From the IMG/VR virus record IMGVR_UViG_3300046522_000750: 64,000 nucleotides of DNA; one strand, 5' to 3'. The position numbers and the translations under genes are program-made. This DNA comes from a virus. Lineage: Duplodnaviria > Heunggongvirae > Uroviricota > Caudoviricetes. How positions within the stretch are numbered: the stretch's first letter is position 1; every line of letters starts with the position of its first letter. Of this stretch, positions 16,148 through 63,879 are shown piece after piece. The notes under the pieces were generated by a model. It did no database searches, was not told where the DNA came from, and saw only the letters and a program-made list of their open reading frames with translations.

Positions 16148-16164
16148 GTATATCAGGCGAATAC
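16148..16164. promoter_or_regulatory. GTAT-N9-ATAC operator box
   Basis: GTATatcaggcgaATAC upstream of 15741..16103(-). Confidence 0.65.
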
Positions 16165-16306
16165 CAGAATAGCCAGCGCCTTGGGAAAATCCATTGATTT
16201 ATATGAATAAATTGTCGATGAATGGCATCTTTATTTTGTTGACAATTGTCAGGCCATCCGTAAAATTCGCGGCCTTTCCGAACAAAAATCAGGGTTTATC
16301 GTTACC

Positions 16307-16519
16307 ATGTGCGTTGAATTCAAAGAACTCGTTACCGCTTCCCGTCTGTCGCAGTCCAAAGTAGCGGACTTCCTGTGCACCAAGTCGATCCAGATGGTGA
16401 GTGAGCGTGACATCCGCGCCTGGCTGGCCGTACCGGGCTCTAAAAACAGCCGTAACTGCCCGGCCTGGGTGCTGAAGGAAATGGCGGTGTTCGCCCCTGT
16501 TGTGGCACAAGCCGCCTGA
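16307..16519 (+). CDS. Small HTH protein (Aca1-like pattern)
   Basis: LSQSKVADFL...VSERDIRAWLA...RNCPAW; own promoter TTGACA-16-TAAAAT (16239-16266) and terminator at 16549-16582. Confidence 0.65.
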   Translation: MCVEFKELVTASRLSQSKVADFLCTKSIQMVSERDIRAWLAVPGSKNSRNCPAWVLKEMAVFAPVVAQAA

Positions 16520-16588
16520 TCGACCTTCCCCGGCTAGCCTTTAAAGAGAAACCGCCAGTGCTGTTTAGCCTGGCGGTTTTTTCAATGC

Positions 16589-17404
16589 TTATTGGATGCT
16601 GATTGACCAGTCTGTGGTTTCGCATGGCAGGTGTTCAACCAAGCCTTCGTCACCAATCAGTTCCTCAATGTTTTCACGCAGCAGTTTGTGTACCACTGGC
16701 AGGCCAATGCCATTGAGTCGATAGTCGATCTCCAGAGTCACCTTGACCTTCACCACCGTCGTATCCAGTACCTGAGTCGACAGCTTGTCATGCGCCGCCA
16801 GGGCCAGTTGGTGATAATCACTACCCGCCTCAGCCAGTTTGCGAACAAAGGCCAAGGCCTCATCGTCATTCGCAAAGCGCGGGTCTTCGTCGAATTTATC
16901 GATCATGAACTTGGCGTTGAAGCTCCCGCCAGAATGTTCACTCAGCAACCAGCCTTCACGCTGGGCCATTTCGTCGATAATGCCCATTTGATCGCCGGTC
17001 AGAGGCAAACGACCTTGGCGAGTAGTGGCCGCTGGCACCGGATCAACCGATTGAAAGCTAATGGTATCGGCGTCTGCCCATTGCTGGAACCCTTCGGCAT
17101 GCAACTCATCCAGGTCGTTCTGACTGAGGGTTACTTTTTGATCCTCGAAATCCTCAGGGGTGTTGTGGGCCAACAGGGCCAGCTTGTGGAGAACGCTGCC
17201 AGCCTTTGCGCATTTTTCGATATGCTCAATTGCATCATCGTCGTTGGCAAATACGCCGGCCTCATCGTCACGCTGAATTCGGGCGACGGTCTCATCCTGG
17301 CCAATGTCAAAGAGAGCCCAGCCTTCCTTCATCGCCATGGCATTGATGTTGCTTTTTTGTTCCTGGGTGAGCAAAACGCCCTGCTGAATGCTGGAATTGG
17401 TCAT
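16589..17404 (-). CDS. Hypothetical protein with two internal repeats (EGW...FANDD.A...AGS..H.LAL)
   Basis: RBS AAGGAGG; duplicated module of about 70 aa. Confidence 0.75.
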   Translation of the reverse strand: MTNSSIQQGVLLTQEQKSNINAMAMKEGWALFDIGQDETVARIQRDDEAGVFANDDDAIEHIEKCAKAGSVLHKLALLAHNTPEDFEDQKVTLSQNDLDELHAEGFQQWADADTISFQSVDPVPAATTRQGRLPLTGDQMGIIDEMAQREGWLLSEHSGGSFNAKFMIDKFDEDPRFANDDEALAFVRKLAEAGSDYHQLALAAHDKLSTQVLDTTVVKVKVTLEIDYRLNGIGLPVVHKLLRENIEELIGDEGLVEHLPCETTDWSISIQ

Positions 17405-17561
17405 CGTGACCTCCTTGATTAACGGGTACTCCAAAACAATACCCTAATGGCAATTTGTTGTAAACAGAACAATTTTACCCCTACTGAAATGAGATGGTTG
17501 CAGAGATGATTTGACCTTGTTCATACTCGGTTCCACACCCAAACAGCAAAGGTTTTTCAGG

Positions 17562-17978
17562 ATGAATGACGTGAAGTGGCAAGCGATCTGTGAGAACGCC
17601 GTGGAACAGGCCAAAGGCCTTTCGTTGGTATTTGCTGGCACTGACGCCGATGTGAGACATGCGCGGGGCACCTGCGAGCTGATAGGCGCTCACATTGAGC
17701 ATGGCGAGTTGTTCGATGAGGAAGCCTTGCCGGTCTACATCATCAAGACTGCGAGCGGCGAAGTGCTGGATGTCTTCGAAGAGGAATTGCAGTGCGAAGA
17801 CGCTGAAGGCCTGGCCAAGCTGATTGAAGGTGTTTCCATGACGTTTGGACTTGCCCGTCAGTTGGGCTGCCTTGGCCCTTCGGATTTGATGGAAACCGCC
17901 TCAGCCGAGGTCAAGGCGCGGTTCCTGGAGCTTCTGGTGAGTGACCGAGCCAGTAAGGTTGTTGCACTGGATCTTTGA
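17562..17978 (+). CDS. Hypothetical acidic protein
   Basis: ORF from MNDVK; terminator at 17985-18006. Confidence 0.6.
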   Translation: MNDVKWQAICENAVEQAKGLSLVFAGTDADVRHARGTCELIGAHIEHGELFDEEALPVYIIKTASGEVLDVFEEELQCEDAEGLAKLIEGVSMTFGLARQLGCLGPSDLMETASAEVKARFLELLVSDRASKVVALDL

Positions 17979-18010
17979 CAGCAAAAGGGGCCGGTTAAGG
18001 CCCCTTCTGA

Positions 18011-18400
18011 TCACTTCGCCCTGCTGACGTAGACCATCATCGCAATGCATTGCCACAAGATGAAAACCATGTTCTCAGGGCCAACCCATTCGGACAAGAC
18101 TGATACGCTCAGGACTCTGATAAAGGCGAAGACGAAAAAAAGGCAGAAAATTCCGGCCACGCGTTGAAGCGGACAGGTTTTAAGGAACAGTACGAGGAAT
18201 GCGGTGTAGACCAGCAGGTCAATCAAAATCCCTTTGAAGTCTTTGCCTTCGACCATCAGTGCTACGACAGTCACCAGACTGCTGATGGCCGCGATGGTCA
18301 GCACGTTGTTTTTGCTGACGCTCTCCAGACCCTCGCCCTTGTGGCGAAAGGTCATGATGTTCAGGCCGTGCCATGCGATGGTTGAGAGGTAGTTCATCAT
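18011..18400 (-). CDS. Membrane protein (about 4 TM)
   Basis: Hydrophobic segments; RBS AGGA. Confidence 0.65.
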   Translation of the reverse strand: MMNYLSTIAWHGLNIMTFRHKGEGLESVSKNNVLTIAAISSLVTVVALMVEGKDFKGILIDLLVYTAFLVLFLKTCPLQRVAGIFCLFFVFAFIRVLSVSVLSEWVGPENMVFILWQCIAMMVYVSRAK

Positions 18401-18406
18401 AAAGTC

Positions 18407-18816: not shown

Positions 18817-18893
<77 letters not shown>

Positions 18894-19030: not shown

Positions 19031-19104
<74 letters not shown>

Positions 19105-19215: not shown

Positions 19216-19292
19216 TGGCGCTCCCGGCAGGACTCGAACCTGCGACCATCCGCTTAGAAGGCGGATGCTCTATCCAGCTGAGCTACGGAAAC
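19216..19292 (-). tRNA. tRNA-Arg (TCT)
   Basis: GTTTCCG...TCCGC-CT-TCT-AA-GCGGA...GGTTCGAGTCC...GCCA. Confidence 0.95.
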
Positions 19293-20431: not shown

Positions 20432-20716
20432 CTACTGCGCCGAATTGAGCTTCTGAAAAGCCTTGTAGTATGCGTCAGCCTGGGCCTTGGCTTCTTCCAT
20501 GGTTGCGCATGGTTCATCGCAAGTGTTCTTGCCAAGCCCGTACCAGTACCAACCGGTCTTTCGATCCCAAAACGCTTGGATAACAGCAACAGAGATAATG
20601 AGCTTATCGCCTTCGCGCAGCTGCATGCCTCGAGGCCCTTGACCCATTCCGGCCAAGCCTGTGGCCTTCGGCTGTTTGCGCCACCGTGCGGTGACTTTGG
20701 GTTTCTGTTCAGACAT
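20432..20716 (-). CDS. Hypothetical protein
   Basis: RBS GAGGA; directly after a GTAT-N9-ATAC promoter. Confidence 0.7.
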   Translation of the reverse strand: MSEQKPKVTARWRKQPKATGLAGMGQGPRGMQLREGDKLIISVAVIQAFWDRKTGWYWYGLGKNTCDEPCATMEEAKAQADAYYKAFQKLNSAQ

Positions 20717-20739: not shown

Positions 20740-20756
20740 GTATGTTTGCAGTATAC
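20740..20756. promoter_or_regulatory. GTAT-N9-ATAC operator box
   Basis: GTATgtttgcagtATAC; TATACT -10 on the minus strand. Confidence 0.75.
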
Positions 20757-21202
20757 CGTAAATTGAGGCTCATGCCAAACAAATAAACCCATTGGCAGAC
20801 TGCTTAGGTGGGAAAACCGTATACATTTCCCCTCGCCACAAGCAGGCGGCTCACTCACGCGCTTCATTTCAAGCCTTTTGAAAGCAGAAGGCCCGCACAT
20901 GGCGGGCCGTCAAGCGTATACATTCACATGCATTTTTACATGCAAATGAGAATCATTGACAAGCTTCGCAGTCAGGATTCTCCAATGAGCATGCCAACGG
21001 CACGCCTTGGGCTTCAACGTCGAGCAGGAAGTCATCGCCTTCCTGATCTTCTACTGCTGGCTCATCCCAGCTCATTACGGGTGCTGCTGCTTTCTCTGAC
21101 ATGGTGATTTCCTCTGAAATATCGCTGCAAGAATTACATGATAAGGGCTGCGTCGACGTCGATGCAAGCTTGTCAATTTGCAGTTAAGTGTTGACATTAT
21201 GA

Positions 21203-21219
21203 GTATAGCATAAACATAC
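21203..21219. promoter_or_regulatory. GTAT-N9-ATAC operator box
   Basis: GTATagcataaacATAC. Confidence 0.7.
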
Positions 21220-21309: not shown

Positions 21310-21816
21310 GTGCCCGCAGAAGTCACCACCGTCACATTGCTCAATGGCGAGATCAGCCACTGGAGCATCAGTCGCAACCTCGGGAGCCTATATCGCCCAG
21401 TCAATAAGCAGGCTGATGATCAGGAGGCAGTCAACTTACTACAGGGTGATCCAGAGCTTCAGGATCGCCTGATCTCTATGATTTGGCCGGAGGTCAACGA
21501 TTTAGCCTCGATAGCTCGTAAGGACGCAAGATTTGGAATTCTGTTTGAGCGCCGCTTCAATTGCGCCGAGGCAGCCTTGCAGACTGGCCATCACGTGGCG
21601 CCGCGAATGAGGGTTGAACAGCGGATTTTGGCAGATATTGCCAGCGAGCTTCGCCGCAACCCCAAGCTTGAAATGGTAGATCTTGCCATTGCCGATCCTG
21701 AACATGTCAAAAACTCCATGGTCGGCCTTTGGGCATTTGTCCCGGTCGACGTAATGCACGCCAATGACTGGGATTTTCACTTTCTGGATGATGTCATCGC
21801 CCTGCTGGTCGAATAA
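21310..21816 (+). CDS. Hypothetical protein, paralogue of 56960..57508 and 58554..59096
   Basis: Shared W.IS..L, RKD..FG.LFE and WAF.P motifs; RBS GGAGG. Confidence 0.7.
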   Translation: MPAEVTTVTLLNGEISHWSISRNLGSLYRPVNKQADDQEAVNLLQGDPELQDRLISMIWPEVNDLASIARKDARFGILFERRFNCAEAALQTGHHVAPRMRVEQRILADIASELRRNPKLEMVDLAIADPEHVKNSMVGLWAFVPVDVMHANDWDFHFLDDVIALLVE

Positions 21817-21908: not shown

Positions 21909-21925
21909 GTATACTCGTAGAATAC
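21909..21925. promoter_or_regulatory. GTAT-N9-ATAC operator box
   Basis: GTATactcgtagaATAC. Confidence 0.75.
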
Positions 21926-21951: not shown

Positions 21952-22290
21952 ATGCTGATTGCCACCGACTACACGATCTTGCGAGGCGTTATCCCAGGCA
22001 AAGGCAATATCGCCCTTGAGCGTGAGCCCATTCGCCTTGGGACGCTGGTCAATGAGGCCCTGTTCGAGTCGAGCGGCCATGAGATTCTTCAATTTCGCAC
22101 GGTCTTGCTTGAAGAGCGCATGCACGACTGGGACTGGTCTCACGGGCAGCTTCGTTATCACACAGGTAGCCGTGATGCCTGTGACGTCCTGCTGGTGTTT
22201 GCCGAGAAAGAAGTCCTGTTCTGCACCCAGTGCGGAGCGAAAAAAGATGACGCTACCCTTGATCCATGTGAGGCCTGCAAAAAGGTTTAG
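21952..22290 (+). CDS. Hypothetical protein with C-terminal Zn ribbon
   Basis: CTQC...CEAC; RBS GGGAG. Confidence 0.7.
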   Translation: MLIATDYTILRGVIPGKGNIALEREPIRLGTLVNEALFESSGHEILQFRTVLLEERMHDWDWSHGQLRYHTGSRDACDVLLVFAEKEVLFCTQCGAKKDDATLDPCEACKKV

Positions 22291-22317: not shown

Positions 22318-22334
22318 GTATATTTGTAGTATAC
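22318..22334. promoter_or_regulatory. GTAT-N9-ATAC operator box
   Basis: GTATatttgtagtATAC. Confidence 0.75.
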
Positions 22335-22368
22335 TGCAAATACACCACAAACAAGCCTAGAGGCAGCC

Positions 22369-22869
22369 ATGTCAAAGACGACCTTTTTCCCGAACCTGCG
22401 CATTGCCAGAGACCTGAAAATTTCCCTCAAGAAAGAAAAGGTCGAAGGTGGCTACTCCTGCAGCTACAAGTACAGCGTTCGTTTTGACGGTCGTCTTCTG
22501 GGCAACATCAGCCAAGACCTGCCGTCCACTGGCGTCCAAACCAGCATTTCCCTTGAAGACTGCCAAGTACTGGTGGATGCTCTGAAGGCAAAAGGCGCTT
22601 CGCCAGAAGCCATGGCCGAGTTTCATTTCCTGCCCGCCGATGCCATGGTCTCTGGCCTGCTCAGCACCATCCTTGGCGAGGAAGAATCGCTGCAGAAAAT
22701 GAAGCGTCGGGCAAAAACCAAGATTCTGTGGGTCACCCATGACGCCAAGCCCGGCGATTTCATGGAAATGAAGCATCTTTTTTCTGAATACGGAAAGCGG
22801 TCGATCATTGCCGCTTATCCCGAGAATACTATCGCCTTCTTCATTAACGATGATATTGCCGATCTTTGA
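22369..22869 (+). CDS. Hypothetical protein (probable paralogue of 22938..23441)
   Basis: RBS GAGG; C-terminal FFINDDI vs YFVNEDI. Confidence 0.7.
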   Translation: MSKTTFFPNLRIARDLKISLKKEKVEGGYSCSYKYSVRFDGRLLGNISQDLPSTGVQTSISLEDCQVLVDALKAKGASPEAMAEFHFLPADAMVSGLLSTILGEEESLQKMKRRAKTKILWVTHDAKPGDFMEMKHLFSEYGKRSIIAAYPENTIAFFINDDIADL

Positions 22870-22937
22870 TTGGCCGCACCTAACCCTGCCTGATACTGCC
22901 GATTTTTGATCGGCAGTTCTGACTCAAGGAAGACGAC

Positions 22938-23441
22938 ATGAATACCATGTTCCCTGCGTTGCGCGCTGCCAAAGCCATTGATCTGGTGCTGAAGAACGTT
23001 GTAGTCACTGACACCAACAATGTTCAGCACATGTCTTGTGATATTTACCTTGCCGGCAGCAAGCTGGGCAGCTTTGTTGACCATGGCAATGGCGGTTGCG
23101 GCCATTTCTCGGTCATTCGCAGCGATGCCGAAATCCTCTATGCGCAGATGCGCAAAGCCAACTTGCCTGTTTTGCCCAACGATAAAGCCGAGGCCATGAT
23201 GATTGGGCCTTACGCCGAATCGGCCCTGATCAACCTGATTTGCGAAACGTCCATGCTTAAGACGTTCAAGAAATACTGCAAGAAGCATACGGTCATCGTG
23301 TTCAAGGACACCATGCAGGGTGAGTACTCGAAATACCCGCACCCCTTCACAAGCGAGAATCGCAGCGCGGCGGTAGCCAAGCTTGGCAGTCGCATTGCGT
23401 ACTTCGTCAATGAAGACATCACGAGCCTTGAAGCCGCCTAA
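22938..23441 (+). CDS. Hypothetical protein
   Basis: RBS AAGGA; DHGNGG motif. Confidence 0.7.
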   Translation: MNTMFPALRAAKAIDLVLKNVVVTDTNNVQHMSCDIYLAGSKLGSFVDHGNGGCGHFSVIRSDAEILYAQMRKANLPVLPNDKAEAMMIGPYAESALINLICETSMLKTFKKYCKKHTVIVFKDTMQGEYSKYPHPFTSENRSAAVAKLGSRIAYFVNEDITSLEAA

Positions 23442-23492
23442 ATGGCCTGGGGCCTTCGGGCTCCCTTCCCACTCCTTACCAGGTAGACCCTC

Positions 23493-24050
23493 ATGCCCGT
23501 CACTGATGATCTCGCGCTGAATCGCTTGTTCGCCCTGCCCTACTGGGAACAGAAAAAGCTGTTTGCGGAGTACAAATGCACAATCAGCTTCGACACGCTC
23601 GAACAGATGGTTGCCCACGTGGCAGCGGCTGGCATTCCACTGCACGGTTTTGACAATAGTCGACTGCCAGTTTCAGAGATCATCACTGGCAATTGCCTTG
23701 TGATGCGCTCAGCGCCCAATTTCATCTTTAAGCAAGAAAAGTTCCTGTCCTATGTAATCTGCCCGTCAGGCAAGCCTTGTTTGCTGAGATTGGGCACGAT
23801 CCATGCTGGCAGCGTCGATGAGGCGATTGCCTGGCTGTCGAGTCCTGAATTTGCCGAAAATAAATCTCAGATCATCGCTGAAAACGATGCCGAACTTCAT
23901 GAGCATGACTATGAGGCTACAGTACGGATTGCTGGGGGCAATGAGTCTGACCCCACTGTTGCCATGCACAAGCGGTTCTTTGCTGGCTTTCTACCTTGGG
24001 AGCGATCCCGGCCACAATCTGTGCTGTTCGGTGAAGAAAACCCGGACTGA
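23493..24050 (+). CDS. Hypothetical protein
   Basis: 185-aa ORF; RBS AGGT. Confidence 0.65.
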   Translation: MPVTDDLALNRLFALPYWEQKKLFAEYKCTISFDTLEQMVAHVAAAGIPLHGFDNSRLPVSEIITGNCLVMRSAPNFIFKQEKFLSYVICPSGKPCLLRLGTIHAGSVDEAIAWLSSPEFAENKSQIIAENDAELHEHDYEATVRIAGGNESDPTVAMHKRFFAGFLPWERSRPQSVLFGEENPD

Positions 24051-24107: not shown

Positions 24108-24124
24108 GTATGCTGCCGGAATAC
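24108..24124. promoter_or_regulatory. GTAT-N9-ATAC operator box
   Basis: GTATgctgccggaATAC; TTGTCA-17-TATGCT. Confidence 0.75.
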
Positions 24125-24149: not shown

Positions 24150-24575
24150 ATGAGCGCATTTACCCAGCGAGTTCCGTTAACCGGTGAGCCGGTTGAGTTC
24201 GAGACAGTTCACCTCATGGGTGCCCCCCTGGACTGGGCGATGTCTGTTGCCTTGAAAGTGCCTGTCACGGTTTCTGTGAGTGGTCAGTGCTGGCTGGCTG
24301 AGAAGCCCAAGCAAATGTACTCCCCTCACTCGAGATTTCGCCAAGGCGCCGAATTGCTAGACCGCTTTAACGTGCAGTTGACCACGGGTGCAACCACTGG
24401 CGGTCGTGTGGCACAGATCGATGACTTCTTCTGCTGCGGCCCCGACATGCTGATCGCGACTTGTCGCGTCATTGTCATGAAGCTGCTCGGCCCCAAGGTG
24501 ATGATCCCCTATGATCTAGCCCAGGCTTTCCTGATCCGCGAGCTTGAACGCACTGTCGTCAGCGAGGTGGCTTGA
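24150..24575 (+). CDS. NinX/DUF2591-like phage-type protein
   Basis: L.G..LDWA...YSP....QG..L...GP..LIA.CR pattern. Confidence 0.65.
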   Translation: MSAFTQRVPLTGEPVEFETVHLMGAPLDWAMSVALKVPVTVSVSGQCWLAEKPKQMYSPHSRFRQGAELLDRFNVQLTTGATTGGRVAQIDDFFCCGPDMLIATCRVIVMKLLGPKVMIPYDLAQAFLIRELERTVVSEVA

Positions 24576-24577
24576 TC

Positions 24578-25012
24578 ATGGGCGAAATGAGGCTCACGCC
24601 AGAACAAATTCACGACCAATTGGTTGGAAACAGCCAGGCGCTGGTTGATCTGCTCAAGCAGCAGATCCAGGAGAAGCAAGCGCTTCTGGCCCGAGTGGCC
24701 GAACTGGAAGTCATGGTTGGATTGCCAGTCAGCGAAGAACCTTCGCAGCACGTGGGAGTGCACGCCTCCAGGCACCGGAACAATCCACTGGAAGCCACCA
24801 TGAGTCATTGGTGGGCTGAAAAACAAGAGCGGGGCCATCTGCTCAGTTATTTGCTCGGTACGGGGAATCAGCAAGCCTTTGTCACTCAGCGTGACGCCAC
24901 GGTCGCTGCGACCTTGATCCAGTGGCTCGCCTCAGACGCCGGCCAGAACTTCCTGTGCGACGTTCACCGGCTGACACAAGGTCAATTCCTTAAAGAGTTA
25001 GTTATCGATTAA
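24578..25012 (+). CDS. Hypothetical protein
   Basis: RBS GAGG; coiled coil plus AATLIQWL. Confidence 0.65.
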   Translation: MGEMRLTPEQIHDQLVGNSQALVDLLKQQIQEKQALLARVAELEVMVGLPVSEEPSQHVGVHASRHRNNPLEATMSHWWAEKQERGHLLSYLLGTGNQQAFVTQRDATVAATLIQWLASDAGQNFLCDVHRLTQGQFLKELVID

Positions 25013-25059: not shown

Positions 25060-25076
25060 GTATACTGCAAATATAC
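25060..25076. promoter_or_regulatory. GTAT-N9-ATAC operator box
   Basis: GTATactgcaaatATAC. Confidence 0.75.
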
Positions 25077-25281
25077 CGGAAGCGAGCTGCTGTGCGTAGA
25101 TCCTTCCTCTCCTCTACTGCTCCACTGCATACGAGATTTCCGCATGATGCGCTTTCTCTTCATTACCCAGACCTGCGGCACCAAGATGATCATGGCCGAT
25201 GACATCAACCATGCTTGGGACAAATTTGAAACCTGCGGCTTTCTGCGCAGTGAATGCCTGACCGTTTCCGAGGATTGATCG

Positions 25282-25695
25282 ATGAACATCTTGAAACGCG
25301 TTGTCGCTGCCGCAGCCTGCACAGGATTCTTTGCCTACGGTGCCTTGCTGTGCACCATCGCTTACAGCGGGTACAGCATGTGGATGCTGCTGTTGGGTAT
25401 GGCGGCACTTGCAGCCTTCTGTTTGTCGCTGTTGATTGGCCCATTGTTGCGCGACTTGACGGCCAGCATCAGGCATAAGCTGTTCCACCTCGTTGCCGTA
25501 CAACGCGTTCGCCTTAAGATCATCGGCAACATCGTGACCTTTCTGCTGCTTTTCGGAGCGGCCTATGGCTTTATCTGGTTCGGCTCCGAGTACGCCGGTG
25601 CGATTGAATCGTGGATTTCGACGGCAAGCATTGCGGTCGGCACGCTCTTCGCTGTGACTGCCTTCCTGCATCAGCCATGGAACGTCAAAGCATGA
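25282..25695 (+). CDS. Membrane protein (4 TM)
   Basis: Hydrophobic helices; RBS GAGGA. Confidence 0.7.
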   Translation: MNILKRVVAAAACTGFFAYGALLCTIAYSGYSMWMLLLGMAALAAFCLSLLIGPLLRDLTASIRHKLFHLVAVQRVRLKIIGNIVTFLLLFGAAYGFIWFGSEYAGAIESWISTASIAVGTLFAVTAFLHQPWNVKA

Positions 25696-26501
25696 GCAAG
25701 CTGATCGCGATGTCCCACAGTGACCTGTTCAAGGCTGCCAAGGGGCTGGATGTCGACGCGCTGGCTGAAGACCTGCGCACGGCACCTTGGCCTGAAGTGG
25801 ATAAGCCTGTGGTGCCGTCCGGTGAATTACAGATCAACTGCGGCAAGCTGCGGGTAATGGATGCGTCCTACCCCCTCGACCCTGAGTTAGATGGGCAAAG
25901 CGCCCATACCCTGACCAACGTCAAGAACGGCAAGTGGCTGGCCGGTGCGTTGACCGCGCATGACGCATCCGACATCAAGCGATTCCAGTATTGGCACAAC
26001 CAGCGCATTGACCGCTTGGTGAGCAATCACAAAGAACGCGAGCGCGATGACGATGATGTCTACTACGTGATGAATGATCTGAGCGAGGTGGTCACCTCGT
26101 ACAAGCGAGCTACAAGTCTGGGTGGTGTTGTGCACTTCCTGCACATCCAGCATGAAGACCTTAACGACCCGGTGAGTGAATGTCTTGACGGCCTTGAACT
26201 CGTTCCCGGTCAGATCGAGATTGAGCGTGGGATCGCTGGTTTCTTTGATCTGGAATGGATCACTGCTCAGCACCCAGCAGACGATAAAAACGACGAGCGC
26301 TTCGTGCATGAAGGCTGGAAGGCGTACTATCAACGCATGTGCGACCTTACCCCAGAAGCAACACTGTTTGGCACTGCCGAGCATGTGGCGGTCGCTTACG
26401 GACGCAATGGTGGCCCGCAGTGCTACATCAAACGTGATGCAGCCGGCCAGATCATCGCGGCCCGTCTTGTGTTCATCCAACCAGAATATTTGAGAGTTTA
26501 G
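25692..26501 (+). CDS. DUF4241-like hypothetical protein
   Basis: G.L.V.D...G.AGFFD...YG..GG..CY..RD..GQIIA pattern; ATGA overlap. Confidence 0.6.
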   Translation: MSKLIAMSHSDLFKAAKGLDVDALAEDLRTAPWPEVDKPVVPSGELQINCGKLRVMDASYPLDPELDGQSAHTLTNVKNGKWLAGALTAHDASDIKRFQYWHNQRIDRLVSNHKERERDDDDVYYVMNDLSEVVTSYKRATSLGGVVHFLHIQHEDLNDPVSECLDGLELVPGQIEIERGIAGFFDLEWITAQHPADDKNDERFVHEGWKAYYQRMCDLTPEATLFGTAEHVAVAYGRNGGPQCYIKRDAAGQIIAARLVFIQPEYLRV

Positions 26502-26512
26502 GGAGAGGCACC

Positions 26513-26857
26513 ATGGCACTGAAAACGACCGGTAAAGAACTGAAGGCGTTCCTGGCTGACGATTCGATCTGGCCTGACGCTTCTGATAACAATGTCTTTC
26601 ACGAAGAAGTCACCTTGATGGTCGGTGGTGTCGAGCGTGATTCTGACTACTTGTCAAATATTAATGACGATGAAGCCGTCACCATCACCGGTGGCTATGT
26701 CTCTTCGGTTGGTTTGACCGAGGTCGACTGTACTTTCGAGGCCTATCTGAAGAAATGGCGCAAGCAGCAGAACACTGTGTACCTGTCGGTGAGCGTGCCG
26801 AAGGACAAGGCTGAGGCCGTTAAGGCGGCGATCAAGGCCGCTGGTGGGTCGTGCTGA
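26513..26857 (+). CDS. Hypothetical protein
   Basis: RBS GAGG. Confidence 0.7.
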   Translation: MALKTTGKELKAFLADDSIWPDASDNNVFHEEVTLMVGGVERDSDYLSNINDDEAVTITGGYVSSVGLTEVDCTFEAYLKKWRKQQNTVYLSVSVPKDKAEAVKAAIKAAGGSC

Positions 26858-27072
26858 TGGTTCGGAGTATTCTGCCTCCGTGGATCTCCACCAAGAAGCG
26901 TCCCCCAAAGGGTGAAGAGTTCATCTTCATGGACGAAAATGGTGGGTATCACCTGGCCAAGTACAACGGCCAATACGTGTGCCCGGTGATCTACGGTAAT
27001 GCGCCGAACGTAGAGCGCAACCTCAGTGAATTCGTGTGTTACACACCCATCATCGCACCACAGGTTGCCTAA
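26857..27072 (+). CDS. Hypothetical protein (DUF551-like WIS..RPP start)
   Basis: TGATG overlap. Confidence 0.55.
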   Translation: MVRSILPPWISTKKRPPKGEEFIFMDENGGYHLAKYNGQYVCPVIYGNAPNVERNLSEFVCYTPIIAPQVA

Positions 27073-27073
27073 A

Positions 27074-27382
27074 ATGGATAATTCCATGTTTTCGCCAAAA
27101 CCCATCGTTGCCGTTCGCGCCGTGTACGAGGCCGAGATTCAGTGGTATTGGGCTGATAGCCATGTGCATGACCAGGACTACCATAACAAGGTCAATGATG
27201 CGGTGGACGCTGAGATCAAGCGCGTCTGCGATCCGTCACCAACGCTGTACCAGGACACACGCTATTGCTGCCAGTGGGAAGGCATCAAGCTGATCGGTGA
27301 AAGCCTGGAGCAAGTCCGCCAAGCTGGCGAGCAGGTGGCCAAGGTCTTGGGCCGCTACAAATTCCTTCTCCACTTTGAATGA
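27074..27382 (+). CDS. Hypothetical protein
   Basis: Starts immediately after the upstream stop. Confidence 0.6.
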   Translation: MDNSMFSPKPIVAVRAVYEAEIQWYWADSHVHDQDYHNKVNDAVDAEIKRVCDPSPTLYQDTRYCCQWEGIKLIGESLEQVRQAGEQVAKVLGRYKFLLHFE

Positions 27383-27478
27383 TTGCTGGGCAATGTGTAT
27401 TTAACCGCACATTGCCATTGCTATCGGTTCTGTTAAACAGTACACTACGAGCATACCCGAATTGCGAAGGATGTTGCA

Positions 27479-28024: not shown

Positions 28025-28069
28025 TGTCTGCACCCCAATCCTTTGTCCTGCCCTCACGGAGCGAGATCA

Positions 28070-28598: not shown

Positions 28599-28673
28599 CG
28601 GTTCGGCACGATGGGTTTGGTACTCACAAACCCGAAGTGACTGACCTTAACACCGTGTACAAGGTTGATGATC

Positions 28674-52077: not shown

Positions 52078-52084
52078 ACCCGCA

Positions 52085-52501: not shown

Positions 52502-52522
52502 TTCACTAAAACGGAGTTTCGC

Positions 52523-52936
52523 ATGACTGCTGATTTTGCTGTTTCGAGTGGCCCTGCCAATTTCTTGCTTATCAAGCCCGGAGCGACCGACCTGTTCGCA
52601 GTCGAGTACCGTGCCGAGAATCCTTCAGCAGTGCATCACATCAAGATGCCTGTTAAGACTGATGCTTGCTTTCAGGCACTTAAAGCGTCGGTCGCAGCCT
52701 TCCATGCGCATGAGATGGGTCGTTGTACACCTGTTGAGGCTGGCAGTTGCATGGTTACGAAGCCTGAGCACTATTTCGAGATTCATGAGGCCCAAGCCTT
52801 GATCAACGAGGAGGAGTGGCTGTGCACCGAGGAAGAAGCTTTCTATGACAGCGTGCCCGCCCAAACGCATGAATCCCTGGCTCATTTTTACGAGATCATC
52901 GGCTTTGACTCAGCCGCAAATCGCTACACCAAATAA
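52523..52936 (+). CDS. Hypothetical protein, tandem paralogue B
   Basis: Similarity to 52085..52501; RBS GGAG. Confidence 0.75.
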   Translation: MTADFAVSSGPANFLLIKPGATDLFAVEYRAENPSAVHHIKMPVKTDACFQALKASVAAFHAHEMGRCTPVEAGSCMVTKPEHYFEIHEAQALINEEEWLCTEEEAFYDSVPAQTHESLAHFYEIIGFDSAANRYTK

Positions 52937-52998
52937 TTTGCAGTAAATTGCAAATTCCGCTTTCAGTCTGTCAATAAAAGAGTATACTTAGCGCATAC
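52937..52998 (+). promoter_or_regulatory. Promoter module: TTTGCA-N6-TGCAAA box plus GTAT-N9-ATAC box
   Basis: TTTGCAgtaaatTGCAAA at 52937-52954; GTATacttagcgcATAC at 52982-52998. Confidence 0.8.
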
Positions 52999-53025: not shown

Positions 53026-53526
53026 ATGAATGCCGTTCTCAAAGCCCTGGATTCTGCTCACCACCTGTGTGCTGCCACCCAAGGTAACACCGCCTTGACC
53101 CTCGAGATTGGCGAGATCCTCGAGCGCCTAAAAAAGCTCTCTCCCGATCTAATTCATCTTGTTGAAGACGGCAAGTTTGTTGACCCTGAAGCTTACGGTC
53201 GCATTCTGCCGTTGTTCGCTGAGAGCACGAAGCAGGACATGACTCCTGTGTATGTCGTTGTCGAGAAGCTAGTAGATCAATCCAAACTGCATGAGTACGA
53301 CACCGAAATTGAAGGCCACTACGAAATTCTGGTGCCCTCTTTCCTGAATGACGAACTGCAGGCCGCGTGCGCACTGGATCTGTTCCATGGTTCGGTGGCC
53401 ATCAAGGTGCTGGACTGCTTCAGCATCGTGGTTTCGAAGCCGCTGGAATCTCCTGAAACCTATGAAAACGGCACCCTAGAGCGCCTTGGTGACTTCGTAG
53501 GCATCACCGAACGCACCTCGTTCTGA
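53026..53526 (+). CDS. Hypothetical protein
   Basis: RBS AAGGA; after a GTAT-N9-ATAC promoter. Confidence 0.7.
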   Translation: MNAVLKALDSAHHLCAATQGNTALTLEIGEILERLKKLSPDLIHLVEDGKFVDPEAYGRILPLFAESTKQDMTPVYVVVEKLVDQSKLHEYDTEIEGHYEILVPSFLNDELQAACALDLFHGSVAIKVLDCFSIVVSKPLESPETYENGTLERLGDFVGITERTSF

Positions 53527-53580
53527 CCCTTCTACGGCCCTGTCACGATGGCAGGGCAAACCCCCGTTTAGGAGTTCATC

Positions 53581-54276
53581 ATGAGCACCATGGTTGCTAT
53601 CGTTTTCTCGCAATCCTCTGCAGCCACCTTCGAGGAGGTTGGCCTCAAAGACGCAGAGGTATTGAATGACCTCAAGCTGTTTTCCATGAACACCGAGGAA
53701 GAAGCCCGAGCGTTTATCAGTGGCGTTGACGAGGCTGTTGGCTACGAAGAATGCCGCATAAAAGAAGTCCTCCCTCGCTCCAAAGTGGCTCAAATCGCCT
53801 TCGGTAAAGAAGAATCCCGTAATGGCAAGTTTGAAAAACTTAAGCTGGACTCGGTGGCCGAGCGCATAGCCTTCGAGCAAGGTGTCGAGGCGGGTGAAGG
53901 TTGGTTTGGTCATGCCGAAGTCGAAGGCGAGCAGATGGATAACCTTGTTCAGGCGCTGGCCGCGATGCAGGCCGATGGCAAAGAGCACACCGCCGAGAAT
54001 CTGCTGCCATACATCAAGAGCAACGACGAACTCGAAGAACTGGCCGATGCCGATGAGTCCAAGCTGCGTGCCGAGCGCCAGTTCTCCGGCATGACTGAGG
54101 CGCAGAAGACCGTTATCAAGTACGTGCTTGATAACCACCTCATGACCAGTGATGTGTATGTCACCCTCGGGGACAAAGTGCGTCATGCCGTGTTCATGGT
54201 GGCGGATCAGCTTGATGGTGTTGAGTTGACCGAGCTGGAGTACAACGAGATCTACGACAACATCCTGAGCCGCTGA
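53581..54276 (+). CDS. Acidic hypothetical protein, paralogue of 51344..51796 with an extra C-terminal domain
   Basis: RBS AGGAG; shared motifs. Confidence 0.75.
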   Translation: MSTMVAIVFSQSSAATFEEVGLKDAEVLNDLKLFSMNTEEEARAFISGVDEAVGYEECRIKEVLPRSKVAQIAFGKEESRNGKFEKLKLDSVAERIAFEQGVEAGEGWFGHAEVEGEQMDNLVQALAAMQADGKEHTAENLLPYIKSNDELEELADADESKLRAERQFSGMTEAQKTVIKYVLDNHLMTSDVYVTLGDKVRHAVFMVADQLDGVELTELEYNEIYDNILSR

Positions 54277-54553
54277 GCCAGTTCTATCCTGTGCGCCCGG
54301 CTTCCGGGCGCCAAACCTTTTGGAGCAGCATGGAATCAATGCCCTTTAGCCAGTTTCTGGCCCAAGCGACAGCCCAGCAGCAAGACTCTCGTCCTGTACG
54401 ACCAAAAAGCTTACCCCAGGAGCCAGACCTGCCGTCCTTGCAGCCTGGCTTTTTGTCCGCCAAGCCGACAGCGGCGAACAGCTATTGCACTGTGCTGCAA
54501 TACATGCAAAATGTTTAGGTGCAACCCCATAATAATAAGAACAGGTGAACCAC

Positions 54554-54953: not shown

Positions 54954-54970
54954 GTATACTGAACATATAC
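54954..54970. promoter_or_regulatory. GTAT-N9-ATAC operator box
   Basis: GTATactgaacatATAC. Confidence 0.75.
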
Positions 54971-54996: not shown

Positions 54997-55275
54997 ATGA
55001 TGACCGTATTCGCGACTTTTTACCCTCAAGCTTGGGTCAACGACCAGTTGGTCGACGTTACTCCTGAAGGCGCTACCTTGTTCGATGTGACCCCCGAAGT
55101 CGAGTCGATGGGACAGGAAAATGCCCTGGCGATCAAGGACAACTCCAACGCTTCCGACGTGTTCCAGTACTCGGCCCATGCGCCTCATTGGATCAAGCAC
55201 TGGCAAGGCCCGTTTCACATCAAAGTCAGCGATTCGATCCAAGAGCATTACGGGCAGCAGAAACTCTGCGCTTGA
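54997..55275 (+). CDS. Hypothetical protein
   Basis: RBS AGGA; F.PQAWVND...W..PF motif. Confidence 0.7.
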   Translation: MMTVFATFYPQAWVNDQLVDVTPEGATLFDVTPEVESMGQENALAIKDNSNASDVFQYSAHAPHWIKHWQGPFHIKVSDSIQEHYGQQKLCA

Positions 55276-55391
55276 CTCTTTTGGTCTGATCAACTAAATA
55301 GCCAGACCTTTTTCGTGCTGGATGAATGATCGTCTAGCCAACACCAAATCAAAGCCAACGACAGGCCTAATTGCTTAGAAGGATTCTCACC

Positions 55392-55895
55392 GTGAATACC
55401 CCAAATTCCAGTTCGATCATCGGCTCAGTTCTTCCGCGCAAACAAGCCATCTACAGCTCCCGAACGGCGGACAAATTTGTTGTTCGTTTTCTGGAAGGCA
55501 TGCGTACCGCCATTGCTCAAATTGCACGCAAAAACCATCGCAGCATGAACAGCGAGGTCATTAGCTGCCTCGATCTTCACATGCGCCTGGATGCCCTGGG
55601 TCTGTCTCAGTATGTTGAACAGCTTGCAGAAGGCCAGATCGTTCCAGAAGGTGTCAACATTGACCCTGCTGCCCTTGCTGCAGCCCGTGAAGCCAATGGC
55701 GGCAACGTAGCTACCCTGGCACAATTTCGCGCTGGTGATCCTGTCATGTACAGCGGAACCCCGTGGATCATCGCCAAGCTGACCGTACGCAGTGGCAACG
55801 TCTACGCCAAGATCGAACGCGAAGACCCGTCAGATGCCAGCAAGACCGACGAAACAGAAGTGCGTTACAGCGCGCTGAAGCCTTTCATGGTCTAA
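55392..55895 (+). CDS. AmrZ/Arc-family ribbon-helix-helix DNA-binding protein with an extra C-terminal beta domain
   Basis: [35 protein letters not shown] closely matches the N-terminus of Pseudomonas AmrZ (from memory); GTG start, RBS AAGGA. Confidence 0.85.
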
Positions 55896-55948
55896 GCCTT
55901 AGACTAAGCCTGGCTCCCAGCCCTTGGGAGCCTTACAGGACGTTACCG

Positions 55949-56506
55949 ATGAATGACTTGCTCATCACAGGCGCGGCGCTGACCGCCGATACCCTTACCG
56001 AATTCAAGACCCGCCTTGAACATGATTGCACTGGAGCTGGTTACGCGGAGCATTGCACCGTCCAGCCGGTGTTTGTCGTCAAAAAACGCGAGTATATCTA
56101 CGGCGTTGATCTGGATTACGCTGAAAAGCGTGCGATCTATTGCAATGACGAGTACTACCACAGCATTGCCGAATTCATGGAAGACTCAAGCGAGTCATTC
56201 AAGCAGAGTCTGGATACCTTGGTGCAAAAAGGTCTTGAGATGAATTTCTCTGACCTGGACGAGGACGTTCAGTTTTCTACGCTGGCCCTAAACGAACACA
56301 TTCAAGTTTTCGGCTACATCGAACGCTGGGACTACCTCAATGTTCATTTCACCCAGTCGGCTGCTGATGAATTCATTCAGCGCAGTGCTCACAACTACCC
56401 TGACGGTCTGAAGGTGTGCCAGGAAAGTCAGCAATACTGCCCTGAGTTCAATACCATTCACAATGCCATCCTGACTGGCAAGCTGGTTCTGAAGGAGCAA
56501 TCATGA
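55949..56506 (+). CDS. Hypothetical phage-like protein (Ead/Ea22-type C-terminal pattern)
   Basis: T..PVFVV...IYG.D.DY...HFT..AA..FI; RBS AGGA. Confidence 0.6.
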   Translation: MNDLLITGAALTADTLTEFKTRLEHDCTGAGYAEHCTVQPVFVVKKREYIYGVDLDYAEKRAIYCNDEYYHSIAEFMEDSSESFKQSLDTLVQKGLEMNFSDLDEDVQFSTLALNEHIQVFGYIERWDYLNVHFTQSAADEFIQRSAHNYPDGLKVCQESQQYCPEFNTIHNAILTGKLVLKEQS

Positions 56507-56769
56507 GCGGCGGACACTTTGACCATGTTCACAGCCGGGTTCGGGCATTTGCTGAAGACCTGGAGCGCGAGATTGCCAACAATGCTGTGCCAAATGACGC
56601 GGGCGACGTATACAATTTCTCCCCGCCAGTGATGGTCGCGCTGGCCTCCATTCGAGCACAGGCTGAAAAGATAGCCATCCTGATGAAGGCGGCTGATTAT
56701 CTATACAGCGGCGAAATTCTAGAGGAATCATTCCTTGAAATCGTCCTTGAGGCCGAAAAGACCCTCTAA
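56503..56769 (+). CDS. Hypothetical protein (MSGG start)
   Basis: RBS AAGGAG; ATGA overlap. Confidence 0.65.
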   Translation: MSGGHFDHVHSRVRAFAEDLEREIANNAVPNDAGDVYNFSPPVMVALASIRAQAEKIAILMKAADYLYSGEILEESFLEIVLEAEKTL

Positions 56770-56864: not shown

Positions 56865-56928
56865 TTTGCACTTTCATGCAAATTTAACTTATTGACATAT
56901 TGCCAGGTCAGTTTAACTGACCTATGAT
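56865..56928 (+). promoter_or_regulatory. Sigma70 promoter with 19-bp palindromic operator and upstream TGCA box
   Basis: TTTGCActttcaTGCAAA at 56865; TTGCCA-17-TATGAT; AGGTCAGTTTAACTGACCT at 56905-56923. Confidence 0.85.
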
Positions 56929-57513: not shown

Positions 57514-57577
57514 TTTGCGGTTTACTGCAAATAATCATTATTCGAGTATTGTCAGGTCAGTTAAACTGACCTACAAT
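57514..57577 (+). promoter_or_regulatory. Sigma70 promoter with 19-bp palindromic operator and upstream TGCA box
   Basis: TTTGCGgtttacTGCAAA at 57514; TTGTCA-17-TACAAT; AGGTCAGTTAAACTGACCT at 57554-57572. Confidence 0.85.
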
Positions 57578-59100: not shown

Positions 59101-59164
59101 TTTGCATTTTTCTGCAAATTTTATTTACTGATATATTGCCAGGTCAGTTTAACTGACCTATAAT
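59101..59164 (+). promoter_or_regulatory. Sigma70 promoter with 19-bp palindromic operator and upstream TGCA box
   Basis: TTTGCAtttttcTGCAAA at 59101; TTGCCA-17-TATAAT; AGGTCAGTTTAACTGACCT at 59141-59159. Confidence 0.85.
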
Positions 59165-60200: not shown

Positions 60201-60262
60201 TGTGCAATTTACTGCAAAATGATTGTTTAGATATTGTCAGGTCAGTTTAACTGACCTATAAT
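60201..60262 (+). promoter_or_regulatory. Sigma70 promoter with 19-bp palindromic operator and upstream TGCA box
   Basis: TGTGCAatttacTGCAAA at 60201; TTGTCA-17-TATAAT; AGGTCAGTTTAACTGACCT at 60239-60257. Confidence 0.85.
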
Positions 60263-62141: not shown

Positions 62142-62164
62142 CTCCAAGCCAATTCCCAGAAATC

Positions 62165-62191
62165 AAAAAGCCCCCTAATTTAGGGGGCTTT
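62165..62191 (-). terminator. Intrinsic terminator after the MvaT-like gene
   Basis: AAAGCCCCCTA-ATT-TAGGGGGCTTT. Confidence 0.8.
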
Positions 62192-62205
62192 GCTGATCGA
62201 TACGC

Positions 62206-62580
62206 TTAGGCAGCTTGAACCCAGCTTTCAACCACGTCGGCGCCGAACTGTTCTTTCCAGCCCTTCAGGGCTTTGTGGTTGCCACCCTTGGTTTCGATGA
62301 CCTCGCCGTTGTGCGGGTTCTTGTAAACCTTGACGGTGCGAGCGCGGCGGGTTTTCTTGCCACCGGCAGCCTGGGTGCGAGCACCGGTAGCCAGTTCTGG
62401 GCACAGTTCCAGAGCCATTTCACGGCGGGAGATGCCACGGGCATCGCATTGTTCAGTGATCGACTTGAATACTTCCATGTGCGCTTGAACTTGTGGCTGC
62501 AGCTCTTGGGCGCGAGCGGTCAGCTCAGCGATGGAAGCTTCCAGTTGACGCAGTTCGTGTACTTTAGAAGTGGTGTTCAT
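62206..62580 (-). CDS. MvaT/H-NS-like nucleoid-associated protein
   Basis: RRAR.VKVYKNPHNGEVIETKGGNHK.LK.WK..FG...VESW signature. Confidence 0.92.
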   Translation of the reverse strand: MNTTSKVHELRQLEASIAELTARAQELQPQVQAHMEVFKSITEQCDARGISRREMALELCPELATGARTQAAGGKKTRRARTVKVYKNPHNGEVIETKGGNHKALKGWKEQFGADVVESWVQAA

Positions 62581-62874
62581 TTGGTCATCCTCGACAGCGT
62601 TGGTTAGTTAGGCTTAGTGCCTTGTTGTGTGAGATGAATATAAGGCTTAATTGCCAGAGTGTCAAACGCCTTTTTTCAAATAATTCAGCTTTTTTAGTTT
62701 AAACCGCAAACTAACTACGAGTTGCTCAAAAAACAATCAAACTACTTTTTTGTGGACAAAAAAAAGCCCCTGTTACGGGGCTAGGCACTTGAGTTATCTC
62801 AGGCAAAAGCTCGGGGTAGAGCTAAATCTCGTCCAACGCTAATGAACGAAGTCTTGGCGGGCATAACAAGGGTG

Positions 62875-63393
62875 TTATGCCCAGTGTGGTCTTTCGTTTG
62901 TTTTTTCAAACTCATCGGAAAAATCAGCGTTCGACCAAACGTCGTTGTGGTTTAGGCTTTCCAGCAAGTCTTCACGCCATTCTTTATTGAGAGGCGTCCA
63001 ATCATCGCCGTCCAGCACATCGGCACGCAGAACGACTTGATCAACGGTGTCCAGGAGCAGCCGGCAAACGGCTGGGGCGTCTCCCTCTTTAAAGATGTGC
63101 TGCCACTCACCGTGCATGTAGCGCGTCATGGCATGTTCTTTAATGGCAAGATCAAGCAAAGACGCCTGGTCGTCACCGACAACAGCCCATGCCCCCAGGC
63201 TGGCCGGTAGATTGGCAAGCATAAGACTACCTTTCGTACCCGTCATAATTGCGAGGTTACGAGACTGCAAGTGAAAGCCGTAAGACTTGACAAGCTCGAT
63301 CTTTTGCTCGATTGACAATGCCACTAGATTCATCCCCAAAAACTTTAGGCAGCCGTCAAAGACGACATAAACCAGATCTGACTGTTGAGTCAC
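62875..63393 (-). CDS. Hypothetical protein
   Basis: 172-aa ORF; start uncertain. Confidence 0.6.
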   Translation of the reverse strand: MTQQSDLVYVVFDGCLKFLGMNLVALSIEQKIELVKSYGFHLQSRNLAIMTGTKGSLMLANLPASLGAWAVVGDDQASLLDLAIKEHAMTRYMHGEWQHIFKEGDAPAVCRLLLDTVDQVVLRADVLDGDDWTPLNKEWREDLLESLNHNDVWSNADFSDEFEKTNERPHWA

Positions 63394-63440
63394 TTTTGAA
63401 GAAAACAGCCATCCATTTCTGACAACAGGCTAGGCCGCGT

Positions 63441-63740
63441 TTAAGCATGAGCCACTTGATCAATCCGATTCAAAAGCTCCATGGCCCAGACAGGCACATA
63501 AAACTTTGTCATCCTGGAGATGCGGTCGTTTTCGTTGTGCAGCGTACCAAGACGGCTCGAGAACTGACTGAAATTCGCGCCGTGCATTTCGCACGCCACT
63601 TTCTTTTGAGTGCCGTTCACCAAATGCTCTCGCAAGGCCAGCTTGACTTTATCACCTTTGATCGAGGTGCCGGCCATGAGGAGGCAGAAGTGCTCCAGGG
63701 TAAACTCGCCTTTCTGATTGCTTTGGGTAGTCGTCATCAT
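63441..63740 (-). CDS. PapB/FocB- or TrfB-like HTH transcriptional regulator
   Basis: F.LL...TSI...KV..ALREHLV.G...K.AC..HG.N...FS..L..L pattern; RBS GAGGA. Confidence 0.7.
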   Translation of the reverse strand: MMTTTQSNQKGEFTLEHFCLLMAGTSIKGDKVKLALREHLVNGTQKKVACEMHGANFSQFSSRLGTLHNENDRISRMTKFYVPVWAMELLNRIDQVAHA

Positions 63741-63862
63741 GATTTCCTCGGCTGCAGGGTACACGCTGCTATGCCATGTCTACTCACCCTTCATGGGTGA
63801 ATGCTGTACGGCCTGCTGAGTCGCTATCAGGCCTCTATAGGCATGAATTATACCGATTAACG

Positions 63863-63879
63863 GTATTCTGTCAATATAC
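63863..63879. promoter_or_regulatory. GTAT-N9-ATAC operator box upstream of the PapB-like regulator
   Basis: GTATtctgtcaatATAC. Confidence 0.65.

Follow-up and report, generated by a model that had tools for sequence, protein, structure and literature searches.

A recurrent 19-bp dyad over sigma70-type promoters suggests a common repressor for about 100 small genes of a large Pseudomonas-type plasmid

The DNA analysed here, a stretch of 64,000 nucleotides from IMG/VR record IMGVR_UViG_3300046522_000750 (hereafter the window), originates from a rhizosphere metagenome and belongs to a large Pseudomonas-type plasmid with a TrfA-type initiator. The initiator is encoded at the left end of the window (Pfam TrfA, E = 1e-7), and it is 49% identical to the TrfA of 300–480 kb Pseudomonas plasmids, such as pKF715A. 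Proteins identical or related to those of the window are found on contigs of 317 kb, 1.13 Mb, and 1.28 Mb, so that the replicon is probably very large; it may be a giant plasmid or part of a larger molecule. A gene map obtained with a self-trained codon model comprises 134 genes, which cover 82% of the window. Throughout much of this map, the genes are small and arranged in operons headed by a recurrent palindrome, which we refer to as the A-box. There are 28 A-boxes, heading about 30 transcription units with about 100 small genes, located between 16 and 56 kb, with additional units at 3.2 kb and 63.9 kb. Among 128 predicted proteins, only 22 Pfam families could be recognized and 71 PHROG families were matched, which indicates that most of the regulated genes code for uncharacterised small proteins, and that many of these have relatives in phages. 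Genes for phage structure or lysis were not observed in the window.

The core of the A-box, GTAT-N9-ATAC, is present in 23 exact copies, compared with 0.18 expected from dinucleotide shuffles of the window (maximum 2) and 0.73 expected from mononucleotide composition. The latter value agrees with the rough figure of 0.6 given in an earlier reading of the letters alone (the sequence-only reading), which had listed the same 23 positions and missed none. With the whole window counted, the motif ranks first among all palindromes of the form 4-Nx-4 with x = 0–15. Moreover, ATAC follows at a gap of 9 in 22 of the 47 intergenic GTAT tetramers, compared with zero to two cases at every other gap from 0 to 30. 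Twenty-two of the exact copies are fully intergenic, and the copy at 42455 shares 6 nt with the end of a gene, consistent with the earlier description of the sites as intergenic or at a gene end. Taken together, matches with one mismatch do not exceed the number expected by chance (12 vs 18), and for this reason only intergenic copies with one mismatch were counted. A symmetric position weight matrix of 22 bits recovers the four such copies pointed out previously (3179, 17426, 27440, and 46060), all of which are intergenic and retain the wider symmetry, together with a fifth at 22329, which overlaps the exact site 22318. All five degenerate sites are intergenic, compared with 1.3 matches expected anywhere in shuffled sequence, and none was recovered in coding DNA. 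The comparison of intergenic with coding DNA that the sequence-only reading had called for thus came out clearly: apart from the 6 nt at 42455, exact and degenerate A-boxes are all non-coding.

The consensus of the A-box, RGTATRCT-N3-AGYATACY, is 19 bp long and amounts to 22 bits. The dyad exceeds the eight fixed bases by the pairs R0/Y18, C6/G12, and T7/A11 (position 11 is mostly A), whereas the three central bases are free. The extension of the symmetry into the flanks, which the sequence-only reading had noticed, is therefore genuine and is matched by an inner extension at T7/A11 and C6/G12. The site can also be regarded as two GTATAC-like half-sites, each of them nearly palindromic by itself, spaced 11 bp from centre to centre. 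A dyad with fixed spacing, overlap with promoters, non-coding location, and conservation independent of the flanks are the general properties of repressor operators, and all are found in the A-box.

The relation of the A-box to the core promoters is equally regular: every box overlaps a sigma70-type core promoter. One arm supplies the −10 hexamer in 22 of the 28 sites, with a TTG-type −35 located 16–18 bp upstream, much as had been proposed from the letters. When, for each box, the highest-scoring sigma70-type promoter that reads towards the neighbouring gene is considered, three registers can be distinguished. In the left-arm register (17 sites), the −10, usually TATACT, starts at box position 2, and the median distance from the box to the start codon is 22 nt. 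In the right-arm register (16148 and 45495 on the minus strand, 21203, 22318, and 34210), the right arm followed by T forms the −10, and the left arm falls into the spacer, where it is unread by sigma70. Finally, the box spans the −35 and the spacer at two minus-strand sites, 63863 and 3179, where its free centre includes a perfect TTGACA, separated by 16 bp from a downstream TATAAT or TTTAAT. An independent consensus scan called promoters at about 16 boxes.

At the left of the window, the degenerate box 3179–3195 (one mismatch, ATAT...ATAC; 17.7 bits) lies over two divergent promoters. The minus-strand promoter, whose −35 is held by the box (TTGACA-16-TTTAAT), faces 2951–3121, and the plus-strand promoter (TTGATA-16-TATAAT) faces 3241–3534. 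The main array begins with box 16148–16164 (minus), in which an arm plus T provides the −10 TATACT 44 nt before gene 15741–16103; on the plus strand, the same box exactly fills the 17-bp spacer of TTTACA...CAGAAT. It is followed by the degenerate box 17426–17442 (minus; GTAC...ATAC, 11.5 bits), 21 nt before gene 16589–17404, and by box 20740–20756 (minus; TTGGCA-17-TATACT), which heads 20432–20716 and three further minus-strand genes. On the plus strand, box 21203–21219 (TTGACA-18-CATACT, right arm plus T as −10) heads 21310–21816, box 21909–21925 overlaps the −10 ahead of 21952–22290, and the two overlapping boxes at 22318–22345 (22318 exact, 22329 with one mismatch) head the three genes of 22369–24050. 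The left arm forms the −10 in the plus-strand boxes 24108–24124 (TTGTCA-17-TATGCT; heading 24150–25012), 25060–25076 (TTGCAA-16-TATACT; six genes, 25144–27382), 27440–27456 (degenerate, GTAC...ATAC, 16.8 bits; 27479–28522), 28582–28598 (TTGACT-17-TATTCT; 28668–29982), 30030–30046 (30064–31048), and 31134–31150 (TTGAAA-17-TATTCT; 31169–32353). Box 34210–34226 is placed between divergent units, namely 34266–34911 on the plus strand and, on the minus strand, 33717–34151 (DUF6283) with three further genes.

In the right half of the array, the left arm again forms the −10 in boxes 34951–34967 (TTGATC-16-TATACT; five genes, 34993–36869) and 36933–36949 (TTGCCT-16-TATACT; 36967–38317), both on the plus strand. 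These are followed on the same strand by box 38766–38782, which heads 38825–39265, by box 39310–39326 (left arm as −10), which heads 39347–41400 and perhaps continues to 42460, and by box 42455–42471 (TCGAAA-18-TATAGT), which lies over the stop codon of 42272–42460 and heads 42521–44223. Two boxes face the minus strand: 45495–45511 (TTGAAA-17-CATACT), ahead of 44919–45467 and 44385–44804, and the degenerate 46060–46076 (GTAT...ATAT, 16.3 bits), 43 nt before gene 45582–46016. The remaining plus-strand boxes all use the left arm as the −10: 46142–46158 (TCGACA-16-TATACT; 46167–47091), 47142–47158 (TTGTCG-17-TATACT; 47175–50091), 50115–50131 (six genes, 50153–52936), 52982–52998 (53026–54518), and 54954–54970 (TTGATG-16-TATACT; 54997–56769). 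An orphan methyltransferase-like gene (48538–49365) belongs to the regulon as part of the unit behind 47142, and the unit behind 54954 includes a gene for an AmrZ-like ribbon-helix-helix protein (55392–55895). Box 63863–63879 (minus) covers the −35 and spacer of a near-consensus promoter, with TTGACA inside the box followed after 16 bp by TATAAT; the unit behind it consists of a PapB/FocB-like gene, a gene for a 172-aa protein, and a gene for an MvaT-type silencer (62206–62580).

Collectively, these observations make it probable that the A-box is the operator of one sequence-specific repressor common to at least 28 promoters. The sequence-only reading had proposed a single repressor and a single regulon, and this proposal is well supported within the window by the exact gap between the arms, the symmetry beyond the fixed bases, the occurrence of three promoter registers, the lack of similarity among the flanks, and the restriction to intergenic DNA. 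The reader of the A-box would most likely be a plasmid-encoded, autoregulated repressor that binds as a dimer or as a dimer of dimers (tetramer). Its operator would be embedded in the core of at least 28 sigma70-type promoters, mostly on the −10 hexamer and reaching to about +4, with transcription starting near box position 14. Placed in this way, or on the −35 and the spacer, a bound protein would exclude RNA polymerase, by occlusion or by blocking formation of the open complex, and all A-box units would be silenced and released together. Release upon entry into a new host (zygotic induction), with the genes serving establishment, is a possible, if less than probable, extension of this scheme by analogy with known plasmids; release may instead follow another cue. 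The support for establishment is indirect and comes from the orphan methyltransferase-like gene and from ssb and mvaT promoters of a distant plasmid that carry the same operator type. Several results weigh against this interpretation. No protein of the window could be tied to the A-box, and no member of the KorA/ArdK family, whose proteins of about 100 aa combine a tri-helical helix-turn-helix with a dimerisation domain, was identified among the 128 predicted window proteins with Pfam and NCBIfam. The window, searched through the same protein set, contains no relaxase, oriT, ssb, psiB, ardA, or transfer gene; with these classical leading-region and transfer genes absent, the establishment reading rests on analogy. 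Finally, GTAT-N9-ATAC is not enriched in the plasmids pKF715A, R401, pSMJS2, pPME5, and FeN3W, so that only a single lineage is known to have a regulon this large.

Could the A-box be no more than a promoter consensus, that is, a −10 combined with an element of the initiation region that is favoured by the host polymerase, is shared by many promoters, and has no dedicated binding protein? One arm does make a good −10 (TATACT), and at 17 sites the expected start is close to the second arm. However, the second arm falls into the spacer at five sites, and at two the −35 lies under the box, positions in which an element of this kind would have no function; moreover, the second arm mirrors the first beyond ATAC. 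A promoter element would be expected to keep one register, whereas a binding site that merely overlaps the footprint of the polymerase can take several. Furthermore, the second arm is missing from the strongest promoters of the same window, including four near-consensus promoters described below (class 2), and none of the five intergenic TATAAT hexamers carries an A-box. ATAC at N9 is thus not a general property of −10 elements here, a comparison with control promoters on which the sequence-only reading had staked its proposal. In addition, no −35-like signal for a bottom-strand promoter was found at the A-boxes. Among 18 like-oriented promoters, the mean pairwise identity is 71% within the box compared with 26–30% in each flank segment (25% expected at random), which points to selection on a protein-binding dyad rather than to duplication of promoters. 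Judged by these flanks, the A-box promoters are not recent copies of one module, and only the dyad has been kept constant. We therefore regard a bare promoter consensus as highly improbable.

Recruitment by the plasmid of a chromosomal host transcription factor, such that the regulon would follow a host signal, is unlikely, though less so than the other alternatives. It would accommodate the lack of a plasmid protein assignable to the A-box, the reader of which may be absent from the window. Yet the motif is not enriched in five other plasmids from Pseudomonas or Halopseudomonas that share the broad family and host range of this replicon, an odd finding if a general host factor were worth exploiting, and we know of no Pseudomonas regulator with a dyad of the A-box type. 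Very unlikely is the possibility that the A-boxes are high-affinity nucleation sites from which the plasmid MvaT-type silencer spreads. In both the window and the FeN3W plasmid, an A-box-controlled operon does include an MvaT-family gene, and the half-sites carry TpA steps, which MvaT is said to prefer. However, a 22-bit dyad with fixed G/C positions and exact spacing hardly resembles the loosely defined, AT-rich DNA favoured by minor-groove silencers, and pSMJS2 encodes an MvaT homologue yet lacks such sites. The least credible alternative is that the A-boxes are recombination sites bounding exchangeable cassettes, or activator sites. Such readings could draw on the modular layout of the array and on the mosaic pattern that a diverged relative shows across it; however, the mosaic breakpoints do not coincide with the boxes, and the alignable pieces 38587–38969 and 39197–39776 hold boxes in their middle. 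No recombinase is associated with the array among the 128 predicted proteins, and the 8-bp arms around a 3-bp centre are incompatible with the core sites of tyrosine recombinases. As for activation, a site extending over the −10 through +4 fits occlusion instead.

The best-placed candidate for the putative A-box repressor is the PapB/FocB-family DNA-binding protein encoded at 63441–63764 on the minus strand (Pfam PapB, E = 7e-16; FocB structure 3M8J, E = 3e-9), with a likely start at the ATG near 63740. Its gene is the first behind the strongest promoter of the set (TTGACA-16-TATAAT), with the box over the −35, a position that would suit a tightly autoregulated, abundant repressor. Against this candidate, no homologues of the PapB-like protein were found in the FeN3W plasmid, and those in pKF715A and the R401 plasmid are located inside operons with no palindrome ahead of them. 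Overall, it is only tentatively that we consider this protein as the reader, and a protein encoded outside the window is an equally tentative choice; another protein encoded within the window appears likelier than either, without reaching the level of a probable assignment. Of the three helix-turn-helix candidates named by the sequence-only reading, the PapB-like protein thus remains eligible, whereas the other two lost ground. The 70-aa helix-turn-helix regulator encoded at 16307–16519 (plus strand) is disfavoured by having its own promoter (TTGACA-16-TAAAAT at 16238–16265) and its own operators: the promoter is overlapped by the perfect palindrome TGACAATTGTCA, and a 7-2-7 palindrome, ATTTATATGAATAAAT, lies upstream (16197–16265). 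Its homologues on plasmids of Acinetobacter, Proteus, and P. psychrotolerans are each preceded by a 16-bp 7-2-7 palindrome, for example, TAGGCAGTTCTGCCTA occurring twice, and the protein probably controls itself through palindromes of its own. The 62-aa protein encoded at 42272–42460 (plus strand) is a weak candidate, with a match to HTH_31 at E = 0.1 only, and its homologues in pSMJS2, pPME5, and FeN3W are found in inconsistent contexts.

The 167-aa AmrZ-like protein (55392–55895, plus strand) contains an N-terminal ribbon-helix-helix domain similar to that of Pseudomonas aeruginosa AmrZ (3QOQ, E = 1e-13), with a reading strand, KFVVR, identical to that of AmrZ. It is an unlikely reader of the A-box, because KFVVR contacts GGC and is a poor match for GTAT. 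The protein also shows weak likeness to TprA, a regulator of integrative and conjugative elements, and a homologue in the R401 plasmid is annotated as Arc-family; TprA, as the other relative of this ribbon-helix-helix domain, is without a defined site. Protein 15741 has a single homologue and a poor atlas structure model, and the identification of protein 35350 as a single-stranded DNA-binding protein was abandoned, its likeness being restricted to a patch of 29 aa.

Outside the window, evidence for the operator type comes from the 909-kb plasmid of Pseudomonas sp. FeN3W (CP136011.1), which has 22 proteins in common with the window, mostly in one 50-kb block. Four of its promoters, at 64960, 573257, 574899, and 576492, are of the form TTGAC(A/T)-N5-GTATAGGA(T/A)-N3-(T/A)ATAC-T, a circuit that can also be written TTGACA-N5-GTATAGGAT-N3-TATACT, and match window site 21203 in both their arms and the right-arm register. 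Their targets are two ssb genes, mvaT, and one uncharacterised gene for a 135-aa protein, adjoined by a gene for a lytic transglycosylase; the 135-aa protein has a helix-turn-helix-looking stretch and could be a local repressor. A gene for an MvaT homologue is hence part of an A-box-controlled operon in both the window (box 63863) and FeN3W. These four promoters are the only evidence from elsewhere that the operator type predates the lineage of the window, and their ssb and mvaT targets lend modest support to the establishment reading, as they connect the operator with functions expressed by other plasmids soon after transfer. A very acidic window protein of 49 aa (20953–21102, minus strand), with CEACQ at its C-terminus, shares 70% identity with a protein of 48 aa from the FeN3W mvaT operon and, by this likeness, is a conserved small partner.

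The scan of relatives that the sequence-only reading had proposed therefore had a mixed outcome, with no enrichment in five relatives but four sites of the same type in FeN3W. The counts of GTAT-N9-ATAC in pKF715A, the R401 plasmid, pSMJS2, and pPME5 are at chance level, so that the regulon is not shared by TrfA-related megaplasmids in general, and the involvement of a host factor of general use becomes less likely. The window has no near match among plasmid and phage records, and protein homologues are on record at 85–47% identity. For TrfA and the family of 47175, no relatives were recovered from genome or metagenome contigs, and viral contigs gave single chance matches only. Metagenome reads from four runs revealed relatives at about 98%, about 94%, and less than 90% identity to the window; among 40 listed out of 2,512 differences, none falls into boxes 36933, 38766, and 39310 and one of 39 is intergenic, numbers too thin to serve as evidence. 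pSMJS2 (NZ_CP123446.1) has no multi-copy GTATAC site; it does contain the 12-bp palindrome TTCGCATGCGAA 9–10 times in 212 kb, compared with 0.23 expected, which may be a parS-like site or another operator. In the R401 plasmid, TCGA-N11-TCGA was discarded as a regulatory site, as it lies within coding DNA.

The window contains further repeated elements in addition to the A-box. One of them, which we call the C-box, TTGCA-N6-TGCAA (often TTTGCA...TGCAAA), occurs in eight exact copies compared with 0.05 expected (28536, 45550, 46097, 52938, 54485, 54827, 56866, and 59102) and in copies with one mismatch at 38746, 50071, 57515, and 60202. C-boxes are located 44–46 bp upstream of A-boxes 28582 (46 bp), 46142 (45 bp), 50115, and 52982 (44 bp each), a C-box-like site lies 20 bp upstream of A-box 38766, and all four class-2 promoters have a C-box about 39 bp upstream. 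The C-box may be the site of the AmrZ-like ribbon-helix-helix protein or of another factor. The class-2 promoters themselves (56905–56923, 57554–57572, 59141–59159, and 60239–60257) are near-consensus, lack an A-box, and carry a perfect 19-bp palindrome, AGGTCAGTT(T/A)AACTGACCT, which fills the 17-bp spacer. Their flanks are 55% identical and two of the downstream genes, 56924 and 58554, are paralogues, which identifies them as duplicated modules and as a separate small regulon. Two other enriched palindromes, TGGC-N7-GCCA and TTTG-N4-CAAA, are mostly found in coding DNA and were not retained as regulatory sites. A different palindrome, GATACG-N5-CGTATC, does not occur in the window or in three related Pseudomonas or Halopseudomonas plasmids. 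Three tRNA genes are encoded on the minus strand, Arg(CCT), Gly(TCC), and Arg(TCT), at 18817–18893, 19031–19104, and 19216–19292, respectively. To the left of the regulon are genes of the maintenance and defence type, namely those for hipB-hipA (4737–6379), a SocA/Panacea-domain antitoxin (14565–15167), and a large DUF2201 metallopeptidase-VWA protein beside an AAA_5 ATPase (8169–12586), of which the DUF2201-VWA/AAA_5 pair is kept in the FeN3W plasmid with 41–44% identity. PADLOC detected no defence system within the regulon.

Among known systems, the closest precedents are the global repressors of conjugative plasmids, an analogy that was already drawn in the sequence-only reading and is apt as a description of the mode of action, with an operator placed over core promoters, here over the −10 at 22 sites and over the −35 at two. 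KorA operators have the sequence GTTTAGCTAAAC and number seven, so that the set described here, with at least 28, is about four times larger. As in the present case, KorA of RK2/RP4 is a global repressor that recognizes a short inverted repeat on the −10 of several promoters and silences them jointly. The KorA targets are replication, partition, and transfer operons, whereas those of the A-box are about 100 uncharacterised small genes. The operators also differ in sequence and in the spacing of the arms, which are separated in the A-box; in IncP-1 plasmids, the inverted repeat through which KorA acts at the −10 has no spacer (PMC9723621). The likeness to ArdK of IncW R388 and IncN pKM101 lies in the control by one repressor of a battery of promoters for genes of early entry, and in FeN3W the A-box type is found on two ssb promoters. 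R388 promoters reportedly overshoot on entry into a new host, and those of RP4 are likewise said to be released in a naive cell. In R388, ArdK represses five early promoters, including Pssb, and reads direct TTGACA repeats at the −35 (PMC9723621). The A-box is, by contrast, a GTATAC-type dyad located mostly at the −10 of 28 promoters, and neither KorA nor ArdK operator sequences are matched by RGTATRCT-N3-AGYATACY. A further parallel is provided by the repressor sets of phages (lambda cI/Cro and P22 Arc/Mnt), in which dyads lie over strong early core promoters, and many of the proteins under A-box control have phage homologues. The operator of the Arc tetramer has a centre-to-centre spacing of 11 bp, equal to that of the A-box. 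The replicon differs from phages in carrying TrfA and toxin-antitoxin genes and in having far more operators than any phage immunity region.

In its proposed design, the A-box regulon is thus a familiar one for plasmids, with a global repressor over the −10 that would act by a textbook mechanism, at an unusually large scale. A more far-reaching version of this scenario, which we put forward as doubtful, is that one lineage-specific repressor of an unrecognised family silences about three-quarters of the genes in the window through at least 28 operators fused to the −10 hexamer, and that the set would have expanded from a small ancestral ssb/mvaT circuit resembling that of FeN3W with its four sites and would act as a phage-like early switch on entry into a new host. 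In that case, no larger regulon with a single operator would have been described on a plasmid. The interest of the A-box set lies in its scale, in the nature of its reader, and in its uncharacterised gene content. For related circuits, a promoter with GTATA-N7-TATAC at the −10 and TTGACA located 5–6 bp upstream can serve as a search key. How the long arrays of small genes carried by large Pseudomonas plasmids are kept cheap and yet available is poorly understood; here, a single cis-element joins about 100 such genes into one control unit, and the defined 19-bp site provides an experimental handle on them.

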